From Escherichia coli (GTDB taxonomy: Bacteria; Pseudomonadota; Gammaproteobacteria; Enterobacterales; Enterobacteriaceae): DNA of 64,000 nucleotides. Made by a program: the position numbers. How positions within the stretch are numbered: position 1 is the stretch's first letter; each line of letters opens with the position of its first letter. The stretch lies in assembly GCF_030013205.1 (NCBI RefSeq), contig NZ_CP122648.1; one strand, written 5' to 3'. Of this stretch, positions 22,101 to 28,100 are shown piece after piece.

Positions 22101-25100
22101 GGCGAAACATCATGCTCTGGCTGGTACGGTTACCGTAGATCAGGGTGAACTGACTTTCAGGCTCGGTTTGTAAAGTGGTAGCGATAATCGCCAGCATTGG
22201 CGTAATACCTGATCCTGCTGCAATAGCCAGATAGCGCCCCTGGCGTTCGGCCTGCGGCTGATAGCCGAAATGCCCCTGCGGCACCATGACCTCCAGCGTC
22301 ATACCCTGGCGTATGTGTTCGCGGGCATAGCGGGAGAAACGTCCGCCTTCAATGGCTTTCACCGCCACACTAATTTCGCCAGGCAGGTAGCTGCGGCAAA
22401 TGGAGTAACAACGGCGTAATTCTTCACCATCAAAGCTGGCTTTTAAGGTCAAATGTTGACCGGGGCGAAAGCGATACGCCTCCTGCAAAGGCTGGGGCAC
22501 CGCAAAGGTAATGGTCACCGCATCACGGGTTTCCGGCTCCACTTTTGCCACCGTTAAGGAATGAAACGTTGTCATGGCATCCTCAAATACATTTGAAATA
22601 ATCGAAAGGTTCGCGGCAACTATCGCAGCGATACAATGCTTTGCAGGCCGTGGAACCAAATTCACTGATAAGTGTGGTATGGACGCTGGCGCAGCGCGGG
22701 CAACGTACTTCTGGCGGCAAATGGGCATGGCAACTATGTCCTGCGGGCGGGCTAATGCCATACAGTCGCAGACGCTCACGGGCATCGGGGGTCATCCAGT
22801 CGGTGGTCCATGCCGGGTCGAGTTGCAGCACAACCTGAACGGGAGTAAACCCGTGGGTTGTCAGTGCCTCACGTATCGCGCCAATCAAATGTTCCGTTGC
22901 CGGACAACCGGAATATGTCGGCGTAAAGCCGATCACCCATCCTTCTCCCATCTGTGTCACATTACGCACCATGCCTAAATCGGTAATGGTCAGCACCGGG
23001 ATCTCCGGGTCCGGGATCTGGCTGAGTAGCGCCCATATCTCATGCACCTGCGGCGGTGCAATGGTGGCCAGACGTTGCATACCCATCTCCTCTGTTACCA
23101 TTGCTGACCGGGCAAGACACGCTGGAGATACTGCATTTCTGCCAGCATGGGTCCAAGGTGTTCGGTATGCAGTCCTTTTTTACCGCCAGTGCGATACGCC
23201 TGCTCTTGCGGTACGTTCAATGTGGCTTCGTTGATCCCGGCAAAAACTTCGGCTTCCCACGCTGCGCGTAAAGTGCGTGGATCAACCGCAATACCCTCTT
23301 CACTCAGTGCAATATCAATCTCGTCGGCATCGAACAGTTCGGCGGTAAAACGCCACAACTTGTCGATGGCCTGCTGCATTTTTTGCCCTGATACGTCAGT
23401 ACCATTGCCCAGTCGCTCCAGCCAGCCACGACTAAAACGCAGGTGATAACGCGCTTCTTTGATTGCTTTGGCAGAAATAGCCGCCAGTTGCGGATCACGG
23501 CTTTCCATCAGACGGGTAAAGAGCGCCACATGCCATGCATCGATGAAATACTGACGTGCAATGGTGTCGGCAAAATTGCCGTTTGGTTGTTCAACCAACA
23601 ATAAGTTGCTGAACTGGCGCTCGTCTCGGGTGAAGGCCAGGGTATCTTCATCGCCTTCTCCCGCTAATTCAGCGGCATACGATAAGAAGTTGCGTGCCTG
23701 ACCTAATAAATCGAGGCCAATGTTTGCCAGTGCGAGATCGATTTCCAGTTCCGGTGCGTGACCGCACCATTCACCCAACCGCTGGGAGAGCACCAGGCAG
23801 TTATCGCCCAGGCGCAAGGTGTAAGCCGTTAACTGATTCATTTCCGACCTCACATGTGCTCAATGCCATCAGGGATGGTGTAAAACGTTGGATGGCGATA
23901 GACCTTGCTTTCAGCCGGATCAAAAAATTCACCGCGTTCTTCCGGTTGCGAGGCAACAATTTCACTCGCCTTCACCACCCAAATTGAACATCCTTCGCTA
24001 CGACGGGTATAAGCATCACGGGCATTTTCCAGTGCCATCCGCTCATCGGCAGCATGTAAACTGCCAACATGGCGGTGTGATAAGCCCTGTTTGCCACGCA
24101 CGAAAACTTCGTATAACGGCCAGTAAACATTACTCATTTTGAAACTCCTTATGCGACCTTACAGGCATGTTGTTTTTGTGCATGGGCCAGCGCAGCTTCC
24201 CGTACCCAGGTACCTTCTTCCCAGGCTTTACATTTGGCGTCGAGCCGCTCCTGATTACAAATTCCGCGACCGTTTATCACTTCGTTAAACTCCTGCCAGT
24301 CGATCTCACCAAAGCGGTAGTGACCGCTTTCAGTATCAAAATGCAGATCCGGGTCAGGAACGGTCATACCGAGCATTTCAACCTGTGGAACGGTGTTATC
24401 CACGAAACGCTGGCGGAGTTCGTCGTTGGTGAAACGTTTGATTTTCCAGGCGAGACTTCTGGCGCTGTTTGGCGAGTTATCATCGTTTGGCCCGAACATC
24501 ATTAAGGCTGGCCACCAGAAACGGTTAATGGCGTCTTGCAACATCTGCTTTTGAGCTTCGCTGCCCTGCGCCAGTGCCATGCAGGCTTCAAACCCCTGAC
24601 GCTGGTGAAAACTCTCTTCTTTGCAGATTTTCACCATTGCTCTGGCATACGGGCCATAAGAAGTGCGGCATAACGCCACCTGATTGACGATCGCTGCGCC
24701 ATCCACCAGCCAGCCGATAACGCCGATATCACCCCAACTCAATGTCGGATAATTAAAGATGGAGGAATATTTCATCCGTCCGTCGAGCATTTTTTGGTAG
24801 ATGTCTTCTCTGGCACAGCCCAGTGTTTCGGCGGCGCTATAGAGATACAGACCATGACCGGCTTCATCCTGCACTTTGGCTAACAGAATGGCTTTACGCC
24901 GCAAGGTTGGTGCGCGAGTGATCCAGTTACCTTCAGGCAACATACCCACAATCTCGGAGTGCGCATGCTGCCCAATCTGGCGGATCAATGTCTTTCGGTA
25001 AGCATCGGGCATCCAGTCCTGCGGCTCGATAGCCGTTTCCTGGGCTATCCGTTGCTCAAAGCGTTCTTCTTGGGTCACGTCATCACCTTTACGATTCCAA

Positions 25101-28100
25101 TTTTCGTGAATTAATTAAAAACACGAATCACATTGTTTTATGAAAGTTACACAATAGTTAACTAAAATCACAAATTTTGTATGTTTGAACTGTGACGGAT
25201 TTCGCACCCTATTTTTATAACTCATTATTTATCAGTGCATTAATGTTTTTAGTGGTTGATATACAGATCGCACAGTTAACATTTCGTTAAAATACTCCTT
25301 GCTTTTTATGATTCGTGATTTAACTATTAGAAACAGAAATGTGAAACATCTGGAGAGTAGCGATGCAGCAGTTAGCCAGTTTCTTATCCGGTACCTGGCA
25401 GTCTGGCCGGGGCCGTAGCCGTTTGATTCACCACGCTATTAGCGGCGAGGCGTTATGGGAAGTGACCAGTGAAGGTCTTGATATGGCGGCTGCCCGCCAG
25501 TTTTCCATTGAAAAAGGTGCCCCCGCCCTCCGCGCGATGACCTTTATCGAACGTGCGGCGATGCTTAAAGCGGTCGCTAAACATCTGCTGAGTGAAAAAG
25601 AGCGTTTCTATGCTCTTTCTGCACAAACAGGCGCAACGCGGGCAGATAGTTGGGTTGATATTGAAGGCGGTATTGGGACGTTATTTACTTACGCCAGCCT
25701 CGGTGGCCGGGAGCTGCCTGACGATACGCTGTGGCCGGAAGATGAATTGATCCCCTTATCGAAAGAAGGTGGATTTGCCGCGCGCCATGTACTGACCTCG
25801 AAGTCAGGTGTGGCGGTGCATATTAACGCCTTTAACTTCCCCTGCTGGGGAATGCTGGAAAAGCTGGCACCAACGTGGCTGGGCGGAATGCCAGCCATCA
25901 TAAAACCAGCTACCGCGACGGCCCAACTGACTCAGGCGATGGTGAAATCAATTGTCGATAGTGGTCTTGTTCCCGAAGGCGCAATTGGTCTGATCTGCGG
26001 TAGTGCGGGCGACCTTTTGGATCATCTGGACAGCCAGGATGTGGTGACTTTCACGGGGTCCGCGACGACCGGACAGATGCTGCGAGTTCAGCCAAATATC
26101 GTTGCCAAATCTATCCCCTTCACTATGGAAGCTGATTCCCTGAACTGCTGCGTACTGGGCGAAGATGTCACCCCGGATCAACCGGAGTTTGCGCTGTTTA
26201 TTCGTGAAGTTGTGCGTGAGATGACCACAAAAGCCGGGCAAAAATGTACGGCAATCCGGCGGATTATTGTGCCGCAAGTATTGGTTAATGCTGTCAGTGA
26301 CGCTCTGGTTGCGCGATTACAGAAAGTCGTGGTCGGTGATCCTGCGCAGGAAGGCGTGAAAATGGGCGCACTGGTAAATGCTGAGCAGCGTGCCGATGTG
26401 CAGGAAAAAGTGAACACATTGCTGGCTGCAGGATGCGAGATTCGCCTCGGTGGTCAGGCGGATTTATCTGCTGCGGGTGCCTTCTTCCCGCCAACCTTAT
26501 TGTACTGTCCGCAGCCGGATGAAACACCGGCGGTACATGCAACAGAAGCCTTTGGCCCTGTCGCAACGCTAATGCCAGCACAAAACCAGCAACATGCTCT
26601 GCAACTGGCTTGTGCAGGCGGCGGTAGCCTTGCGGGAACGCTGGTGACGGCTGATCCGCAAATTGCGCGTCAGTTTATTGCCGACGCGGCACGTACGCAT
26701 GGGCGAATTCAGATCCTCAATGAAGAATCGGCAAAAGAATCCACCGGGCATGGCTCCCCACTGCCACAACTGGTACATGGTGGGCCTGGTCGCGCAGGAG
26801 GCGGTGAAGAATTAGGTGGTTTACGGGCGGTGAAACATTACATGCAGCGAACCGCTGTTCAGGGTAGTCCGACGATGCTTGCCGCTATCAGTAAACAGTG
26901 GGTGCGTGGTGCGAAAGTCGAAGAAGATCGTATTCATCCGTTCCGCAAATATTTTGAGGAGCTGCAACCAGGCGACAGCCTGTTGACTCCCCGCCGCACA
27001 ATGACAGAGGCCGATATTGTGAACTTTGCTTGCCTCAGCGGCGATCATTTCTATGCACATATGGATAAGATTGCTGCTGCCGAATCTATTTTTGGTGAGC
27101 GTGTAGTACATGGGTATTTTGTGCTTTCTGCGGCTGCGGGTCTGTTTGTCGATGCCGGAGTTGGTCCGGTCATTGCTAACTACGGGCTGGAAAACTTGCG
27201 TTTTATCGAACCCGTAAAACCAGGCGATACCATCCAGGTGCGTCTCACCTGTAAGCGCAAGACGCTGAAAAAACAGCGTAGCGCAGAAGAAAAACCAACA
27301 GGTGTAGTGGAATGGTCGGTAGAGGTATTCAATCAGCATCAAACCCCGGTGGCGCTGTATTCAATTCTGACGCTGGTGGCCAGGCAGCACGGTGATTTTG
27401 TCGATTAATCGGTGAATGAAGGGCAACGGCGAATAGTTGCCCTTTTATTTCACCAAATTTTGTGACGTTGTCACGTTATGCATGATGTGTATCTGTATTT
27501 TCAGGGCACTCACTGTATGAAAAGCTGGCACACCTGCCAAACAACCTGGCAGGTGCAGGCAATCCCCTTTACATCAGTACTGATAATGTGAACCTGACTA
27601 AACCGCCCACAGAGCGCGGTTGCTAACAAGAACACAACATCTGACGAGGTTAATAATGGGAAGCCCCTCTCTGTATTCTGCCCGTAAAACAGCCCTGGCG
27701 TTGGCAGTCGCCTTAAGTTTCGCCTGGCAAGCGCCGGTATTTGCCCACGGTGGTGAAGCGCATATGGTGCCAATGGATAAAACGCTTAAAGAATTTGGTG
27801 CCGATGTGCAGTGGGACGACTACGCCCAGATCTTTACCCTGATTAAAGATGGCGCGTACGTGAAAGTGAAGCCTGGTGCGCAAACAGCAATTGTTAATGG
27901 TCAGCCTCTGGCACTGCAAGTCCCGGTAGTGATGAAAGACAATAAAGCCTGGGTTTCTGACACCTTTATTAACGATGTTTTCCAGTCCGGGCTGGATCAA
28001 ACCTTTCAGGTAGAAAAGCGCCCTCACCCACTTAATGCGCTAACTGCGGACGAAATTAAACAGGCCGTTGAAATTGTTAAAGCTTCCGCGGACTTCAAAC

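Follow-up and report, generated by a model that had tools for sequence, protein, structure and literature searches.

The control region between the divergent paaA and paaZ genes of this ordinary E. coli chromosome, and the DNA in front of paaX, are best explained by bipartite PaaX operators at the three promoters Pa, Pz and Px, a reading to which we give a probability of about 0.92. Each operator would be made of two inverted hexamers, TGATTC and GAATCA, held 26 to 28 bp apart. The two 15-mers formerly noticed in the control region would then, within the same joint estimate, be the promoter-side (left) halves of the operators at Pa and Pz.

The two 15-mers of the paaA/paaZ control region

The divergent intergenic region is 284 bp long (25079..25362), holds the Pa and Pz promoters and is bounded by the GTG start codon of paaA (25078, minus strand) and the ATG start codon of paaZ (25363, plus strand). 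It was found in 3131 of 5426 complete E. coli genomes and, across 25040-25400, is 96.1% identical to its K-12 counterpart. Against Rfam, positions 24900-25550 gave no known RNA element, the sole match being to a snoRNA at chance level (E = 0.7).

The preliminary description had quoted two sites from this region and we found both of them exactly, inside the 284 bp: AATGTGATTCGTGTT at Pa (25120..25134, minus strand), which is the same as the K-12 site, and TTTATGATTCGTGAT at Pz (25305..25319, plus strand), which has a T at position 12, a degenerate Y, where K-12 has a C. As had also been claimed, both sites match exactly the 15-mer consensus WWTRTGATTCGYGWT, which we take to be the motif of the PaaX operator; a full-text literature search for this string gave no match. 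In the window, that is the whole 64-kb stretch of DNA that was analysed, WWTRTGATTCGYGWT has no other exact match on either strand; 100 dinucleotide-preserving shuffles gave an expectation of 0.01, and no shuffle contained two or more. When two mismatches were allowed, specificity was lost (3 found, 3.9 expected). One of these two-mismatch matches, inside paaX (15373-15387), does not exceed chance and is distinct from the Px operator.

In K-12 the two sites read AATGTGATTCGTGTT and TTTATGATTCGCGAT; their IUPAC merge gives exactly WWTRTGATTCGYGWT, so that the match in the window reflects orthology to the source of the consensus and is not an independent test of it. In E. coli K-12 and W, PaaX operators at the Pa and Pz promoters were reportedly described by Ferrandez et al. 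2000 (by way of PMC9493321). Their place is orthologous to that of the two sites, the 284-bp intergenic region being the same and the flanking genes also (97.5-100% identical). Compared with K-12 we observed allelic differences only, the Pa 15-mer being identical and the Pz 15-mer one base off, at the degenerate Y, with TGATTCGTG at Pz in the window and TGATTCGCG in K-12. This comparison supports the proposal that both sites are PaaX operators, since they are orthologues of the operators at the E. coli Pa and Pz promoters. The operators and their control region are already known, and the copy of this textbook region in the window is ordinary and intact.

Probable bipartite operators at Pa, Pz and Px

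The palindromic 15-mer had been presented as the recognition sequence and the region as carrying two operators. Both 15-mers are indeed present and match the motif, but each of them is only the left half of TGATTC-N26-28-GAATCA, the unit conserved across 43 Enterobacterales loci, and a third operator, directly before paaX (15468-15505), had been missed.

The Pa operator (25092..25130, minus strand) is composed of TGATTC (25130-25125), a spacer of 27 nt and GAATCG (25097-25092), and ends 13 nt before the paaA GTG. The probable Pz operator (25309..25348, plus strand) consists of TGATTC (25309-25314), 28 nt and GAAACA (25343-25348), the latter being its weakest element, with 14 nt between its end and the paaZ ATG. 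The Px operator, at the paaXY promoter (15468..15505, minus strand), is made of TGATTC (15505-15500), 26 nt and GAATCG (15473-15468). Its end is separated from the paaX ATG by 1 nt, and TGcTATGAT, which resembles an extended -10, overlaps its left half. Each of the three operators matches TGATTC/GAATCA at 11 of 12 bases, with an exact left hexamer and a right hexamer, imperfect in all three cases, that carries one mismatch. A search of the window for exact TGATTC-N24-30-GAATCA therefore gave no match, every E. coli operator having its one mismatch. With at most one mismatch allowed, the same bipartite pattern was found at five sites in the window against 0.58 expected, and none of 300 shuffles reached five. 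Three of the five are those located 13, 14 and 1 nt upstream of the start codons of paaA, paaZ and paaX. The other two, at 7719-7757 and 58287-58325, are intragenic and no more than the background rate predicts.

The PaaX site is given in a review as TGATTC(N27)GAATCA, attributed to Kim et al. 2004 (PMC9493321). The three operators of the window share the exact TGATTC with this sequence and have its partner at N26, N27 or N28, but none of them is a perfect match, the spacer being 26 at Px and 28 at Pz.

Only the two hexamers and the distance between them are kept in 43 other Enterobacterales loci; neither the remainder of the 15-mer nor the AT-rich spacer is conserved. All 43 have a site with no more than one mismatch within 110 nt upstream of paaA, with a freely variable spacer sequence, and 67 of the 71 bipartite sites in these loci (851 kb) lie within 110 nt upstream of paaA, paaZ or paaX. 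The spacer range of 26-28 was also observed in 57 perfect operators from other genera; the spacers are unconserved and 76% AT, and the flanks carry little information. GAATCA is perfect at Pa and Px in most other Enterobacterales, and at Px, 17 other loci have a perfect TGATTC-N26-GAATCA at the corresponding place (18 when Citrobacter sp. R56, with 2 mismatches, is counted). At Pz, 26 other loci of the Enterobacteriaceae group all share the left half TATGATTC unchanged, and their right half, at a fixed N28, reads G(A/T)A(A/C)CA. Across genera the right half is GTAACA in most and is not recognisable in Serratia, Providencia or Xenorhabdus. Given this weak cross-genus conservation, the right half at Pz may not be a true half-site, and part of the conservation of TATGATTC at Pz and Px could be due to a -10 element rather than to contact with PaaX.

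One could suppose instead that a single PaaX dimer binds each promoter at an imperfect palindrome of 15 bp, WWTRTGATTCGYGWT, sufficient on its own, the distal hexamers being irrelevant. Both 15-mers match the consensus exactly, the promoter-side half scores 15.7-20.7 and the distal half 8.2-9.3 with a half-site matrix from other genera, and the distal half of Pz is weakly conserved, as this supposition would have it. We nevertheless judge it improbable. Outside E. coli the 3' GYGWT and the 5' WWTR of the 15-mer are unconserved, and position 7, G in E. coli, is A in 66% of half-sites; within E. coli, position 3 at Pa is C in 5 of 9 alleles and position 11 is A in one. Moreover, as read from the sequence, only 4 of the 7 symmetric positions of the 15-mer are paired, all 43 loci keep the distal GAATCA at N26-28 in front of paaA and 17 loci keep it at Px, and the form given in the review is TGATTC(N27)GAATCA (PMC9493321). 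It is hardly credible that the TGATTC blocks are promoter elements (such as a -10 TATGAT) or sites of another factor, PaaX-like by descent only and unused by PaaX here: the hexamer at Pz and Px is embedded in TATGATTC, with a 5/6 match to TATAAT, and at Px it is preceded by a TG at the extended -10 position, but the Pa hexamer is preceded by G or A instead of TA and lies downstream of the predicted -10, a -10 element cannot explain a GAATCA partner at fixed spacing at three promoters and in dozens of genera, and PaaX is intact.

A useful by-product of the comparison is a clean phylogenetic footprint in which the conserved unit is TGATTC/GAATCA at N26-28 and not the often-quoted 15-mer. PaaX targets should accordingly be sought with the bipartite pattern: in 851 kb of Enterobacterales paa loci, 94% of its matches are at paa promoters.

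Predicted promoter elements and a proposed mechanism of repression

From the conserved blocks AAAGTTACA and CAA, we infer a Pa core promoter at 25144..25173 (minus strand), with a -35 TTGTGA (25173-25168), an 18-bp spacer and a -10 TAACTT (25149-25144), and transcription is predicted to start near 25137. Counted from this predicted start, the Pa operator would extend from about +7 to +45. The window contains a sole match to TGTGA-N6-TCRCA, the CRP-type site TGTGAcggattTCGCA (TGTGA-N6-TCGCA, 25191..25206), which is conserved across Enterobacteriaceae-group loci; its centre, 25198.5, would be at -61.5 at Pa, where a class I CRP-dependent promoter would carry it, a position that depends on the predicted -10 and start. 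The paa promoters are under CRP control (PMC4640556, PMC3798270) and the paaA promoter has an ArcA-P footprint together with a CRP site (PMC3798270). The core promoter region of Pz is predicted at 25299..25327 (plus strand), where TTGCTT (25299-25304), TATGAT (25307-25312) and AACTAT (25322-25327) are conserved, and the left half-site would be within it whichever hexamer is the -10. Transcription from Pz is predicted to start near 25319 or 25334. A generic sigma-70 scan returned one promoter-like site, at chance level.

Px is known as the autoregulated promoter of paaXY (Fernandez et al. 2014, by way of PMC9493321 and PMC4640556). Like the published one, the operator of the window is immediately upstream of paaX and overlaps the -10-like TATGAT, an arrangement in keeping with a repressor that sterically hinders RNA polymerase.

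In the mechanism that we propose, PaaX binding, its inducer, its competition with polymerase and the roles of CRP and ArcA are taken from the literature. The inverted hexamers TGATTC and GAATCA of an operator are separated by 26-28 bp of AT-rich DNA without conserved sequence, their centres being about 33 bp, roughly three helical turns, apart, so that both would face the same side of the helix. In the absence of substrate, the operators of Pa, Pz and Px would all be occupied by PaaX. RNA polymerase would be excluded from Pz and Px, where the left hexamer would overlap the core promoter (TATGATTC); at Pa the operator would be in the transcribed leader and a step after polymerase binding would be blocked. 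The predicted positions of the promoters match the published behaviour of PaaX, which competes with polymerase at Px and Pz and acts by another mechanism at Pa (PMC9493321). The third operator, of the same design, on Px suggests that PaaX would also repress its own gene. Phenylacetate activated by PaaK would yield phenylacetyl-CoA, the inducer of PaaX (PMC9493321), whose binding would take PaaX off the DNA. Pa would in addition require CRP, bound at about -61.5, and would be shut off by ArcA under anaerobic conditions.

The paa genes and the variation of the operators within E. coli

The window is 100% identical to E. coli K_EC180 over 40 kb. All 14 paa genes were said to be full length and the tynA, feaB and feaR genes intact, and we confirmed both statements: the paa genes have the order and lengths of K-12, the three others have their K-12 length, and all are free of internal stops with an amino-acid identity of 97.5-100%. 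No pseudogene flag is attached to any of the paa genes, tynA, feaB or feaR in the identical RefSeq record. The repressor gene paaX (14516..15466, minus strand; 316 aa) belongs to the NCBIfam equivalog TIGR02277 (410.5 bits, cutoff 264.55). Its product is identical to K-12 PaaX at 314 of 316 residues, only L245M and I315T differing and the N-terminal region being identical, and aligns over its full length with 8A39, a solved structure of E. coli PaaX (E = 7e-206). On the same strand are paaY (13944..14534; 196 aa, TIGR02287, 376 bits, 191/196 residues identical to K-12) and the paaABCDEFGHIJK operon (15567..25078), with 11 genes, all full length. On the plus strand paaZ (25363..27408; 681 aa, TIGR02278, 1204 bits) shares 671 of 681 residues with K-12 and is followed by the full-length tynA (27656-29929, plus), feaB (29988-31487, minus) and feaR (31723-32628, plus). 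Growth on phenylacetate and 2-phenylethylamine is a reasonable prediction from these intact genes, tynA, feaB and feaR included, because K-12 carries near-identical ones. The strain has a complete K-12-like module for the degradation of phenylacetate and phenylethylamine, with a normal PaaX/CRP/ArcA control region; beyond correct annotation, the importance of this is small.

Nine E. coli alleles were compared, that of strain HS-02 (91.7%, the most divergent) being left out as an error-ridden assembly with frameshifts throughout. Their intergenic identity is 94.5-98%; neither hexamer changes at Pa or at Pz, and the 15-mer is variable at three positions. The promoter-distal halves in E. coli are GAATCG at Pa, GAAACA at Pz and GAATCG or GAAGCG at Px. 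A review states that there is no structure of a PaaX-DNA complex (PMC9493321). We would tentatively speculate, as a rather unlikely possibility, that the degenerate distal half-sites kept in the E. coli lineage and the strain-variable adjacent bases (C/T at Pz, T/C at Pa, GAATCG vs GAAGCG at Px) might determine, from one strain or species to another, how strongly the paa genes are repressed or at what threshold they are induced, and that the 33-bp centre-to-centre spacing implies an unusual binding geometry. At Px, the right half GAATCG of the window is one step nearer the consensus than the GAAGCG of K-12.

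The 15-mers of the paaA-paaZ intergenic region

The interval 25079-25362 is exactly the 284-bp start-to-start gap between the paaA GTG (25078, - strand) and the paaZ ATG (25363), as delimited in a preliminary description, which read two 15-mers in it as PaaX operators fitting the consensus WWTRTGATTCGYGWT. Both quoted strings exist as exact string matches: TTTATGATTCGTGAT at the paaZ promoter Pz (25305-25319, +) and AATGTGATTCGTGTT, as reverse complement, at the paaABCDEFGHIJK promoter Pa (25120-25134, -). They are the only exact consensus matches on both strands of the 64-kb window, where dinucleotide-preserving shuffles gave a mean of 0.01 and never two; with two mismatches the count is uninformative (3 observed, 3.9 expected).

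When we compared these sites with those of K-12 MG1655 (locus L004), the Pa 15-mer was identical, whereas the Pz 15-mer, TTTATGATTCGCGAT in K-12, has C in place of the window's T, at the degenerate Y. The IUPAC merge of the two K-12 sites is exactly WWTRTGATTCGYGWT. Since the consensus merges two sites of which the window carries the orthologues, the match shows orthology and is no independent test; it is close to circular. The 15-mer varies among nine E. coli alleles (C at Pa position 3 in five, A at position 11 in one), and TGATTC and the distal hexamers are unchanged in all nine. The region 25040-25400 is carried by 3131 of the 5426 complete E. coli genomes, in three cases on a plasmid; only 17 genomes reach at least 99% identity (K-12 is at 96.1%), so the window's intergenic allele is a minority variant.

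Bipartite operators at Pa, Pz and Px

The E. coli PaaX site is TGATTC(N27)GAATCA, credited to Kim et al. 2004, and the targets repressed by PaaX are Pa, Pz and one further promoter, Px of paaXY, which is autoregulated (PMC9493321). We observed such a site at each: TGATTC 25130-25125, N27, GAATCG 25097-25092 at Pa (-); TGATTC 25309-25314, N28, GAAACA 25343-25348 at Pz (+); and TGATTC 15505-15500, N26, GAATCG 15473-15468 at Px (-), a third site that the preliminary description missed. They stop 13, 14 and 1 nt 5' of the paaA, paaZ and paaX start codons, respectively. With N26-28 and at most one mismatch in 12, the window holds five matches (shuffle mean 0.58; at least five in 0 of 300 shuffles); the other two, 7719-7757 and 58287-58325, were rejected as coding-region positions consistent with the background rate. 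A distance of 32-34 bp separates the hexamer centres; this is close to three turns of the helix and places both hexamers on the same helix face. The orthologous sites support the reading of the 15-mers as PaaX operators, but each is only a half-operator. The Px right half (15468-15473) is GAATCG in the window and GAAGCG in K-12, so the window's autoregulatory operator is one base nearer to the cross-genus GAATCA.

Promoter elements were assigned from a 27-sequence alignment. At Pa (-) the putative elements are a -10 TAACTT (25149-25144), a -35 TTGTGA with conserved TTG (25173-25168) and a +1 near 25137. The sole TGTGA-N6-TCRCA match in the window (25191-25206) is centred exactly at -61.5 from this predicted start, the classical class I position; Pa is activated by CRP (PMC4640556, PMC3798270), and a 57-bp ArcA-P footprint at the paaA promoter overlaps the CRP site and blocks anaerobic induction (PMC3798270). 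At Px and Pz, repression by PaaX works through competition with RNA polymerase, at Pa it works differently, and PaaX is released from DNA by phenylacetyl-CoA, not by phenylacetate (PMC9493321). The Pa operator, in the predicted leader at about +7 to +45, would fit a block after polymerase binding. At Pz and Px the left hexamer lies inside TATGATTC, preceded at Px by TG at the extended -10 position, and PaaX would occlude the core promoter, in line with the published competition. The TGATTC blocks could be read purely as promoter elements; this explains neither Pa nor the partner hexamers at fixed distance.

Two GTTA(A) direct-repeat pairs (25146-25160 and 25275-25290) are both conserved across Enterobacteriaceae-group loci and have a spacing of exactly 11 bp, which is that of ArcA direct-repeat elements; the pair near Pz (25275-25290) is a candidate for another ArcA site or one of IHF type. 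Rfam gave no family match for the paaA/paaZ region.

Conservation across genera

A PaaA scan of species-representative genomes yielded 80 loci, 58 with a recognisable divergent paaZ beside paaA, all in Enterobacterales or Moraxellaceae. Across 851 kb of sequence from 43 Enterobacterales loci we counted 71 bipartite sites with at most one mismatch. Of these, 67 are no more than 110 nt upstream of paaA (43/43 loci), paaZ (7) or paaX (17), which leaves only four elsewhere. The Pa hexamers are perfect at N26-28 in nearly all genera; the right half mostly ends 12-25 nt ahead of the start codon, one MAG having 38 nt, and Px reads TGATTC-N26-GAATCA, 1 nt before ATG, perfectly in 17 other genera. Spacers are 76% AT and show no sequence relation between genera. 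Information content is low outside the hexamers, with a purine at position 0 and A in 66% of half-sites at position 7, where E. coli has G; hexamer invariance in this matrix arises by construction from perfect operators, the unbiased evidence being the per-locus Pa comparison and the 43-locus site count. A self-contained 15-bp palindrome is disfavoured: its flanks are unconserved, the distal hexamer is conserved, and symmetric pairing occurs at just 4/7 positions.

For the bipartite operator at Pz, the left half TATGATTC is unvarying within the Enterobacteriaceae group; the right half, at fixed N28, reads just G(A/T)A(A/C)CA and is not recognisable in Serratia, Providencia and Xenorhabdus loci. 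The window's Pz right half is rated as no more than a probable half-site. In Xenorhabdus, Serratia and relatives (L042-L051, L053, L054, L061) Pz reads TGATAC-N27/28-GATTCA or GAATTC and Pa is a perfect TGATTC...GAATCA; the Pz operator is much more diverged than Pa. In Moraxellaceae (Acinetobacter, Psychrobacter; L052, L055-L060, L062-L070), whose PaaX is just ~39% identical, the paaZ-paaA gaps carry conserved inverted hexamers TGATAC...GTATC(A/G) in place of TGATTC...GAATCA, at similar spacing and with a TTGAC -35-like element within the spacer, suggesting that the half-site specificity of this PaaX has shifted.

No paaX was found beside paaK within the extent of loci L033, L034, L037 (Cedecea, Enterobacter sp. 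Ag1), L061 (Serratia oryzae), L048 and L049. Their Pa operator is still a perfect TGATTC-N27/28-GAATCA; the gene for their repressor probably lies elsewhere or past the locus end, which touches on reported 'regulator-absent' configurations (PMC13186573). L014 (JAEYLX010000046.1), labelled 'MAG: Bacillota bacterium', has PaaA and PaaK each 94% identical to E. coli and an Enterobacteriaceae-type Pa operator; this contig is most likely mis-binned, of enterobacterial origin.

Gene integrity and the paaK-Px interval

Window 5040-45400 is identical, gap-free, to the E. coli K_EC180 chromosome NZ_CP062203.1 (100%; window coordinate = K_EC180 locus coordinate + 5039), whose RefSeq record has no pseudogene flag on paaY, paaX, paaK-paaA, paaZ, tynA, feaB or feaR. 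All 17 translated genes have the K-12 MG1655 length, lack internal stops and are 97.5-100% identical, bearing out the earlier claim of 14 full-length paa genes and intact tynA-feaB-feaR. PaaX differs from K-12 only by L245M and I315T, both remote from the DNA-binding region at the N terminus. PaaX, PaaY, PaaZ, PaaA, PaaK, FeaR and TynA pass NCBIfam equivalog curated cutoffs. NCBIfam lists no FeaB-specific model, and the best match, StyD, scores 612.6 bits, below its 850-bit cutoff; FeaB is identified by RefSeq annotation and 496/499 identity to K-12. Growth on phenylacetate or phenylethylamine is a reasonable prediction from this gene content. The region is the known E. coli PaaX/phenylacetyl-CoA control region, intact and K-12-like.

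The same K_EC180 record, identical in sequence, flags ynbD as frameshifted (window 5735-7026), places an IS1 transposase between nifJ and ompN (41900-42597) and shows an internal stop in ompN (42885-44018). In the paaK/Px interval, 9 nt past the stop codon of paaK, is a perfect GC-rich hairpin, CTGGCCCTGG ... CCAGGGCCAG (15527-15558, -), with -36.3 kcal/mol as RNA (z = -7.8 vs shuffles). Having no T-run, this hairpin does not qualify as a classical intrinsic terminator, but it may mark the end of the paaA-K operon transcript or stabilise that transcript.
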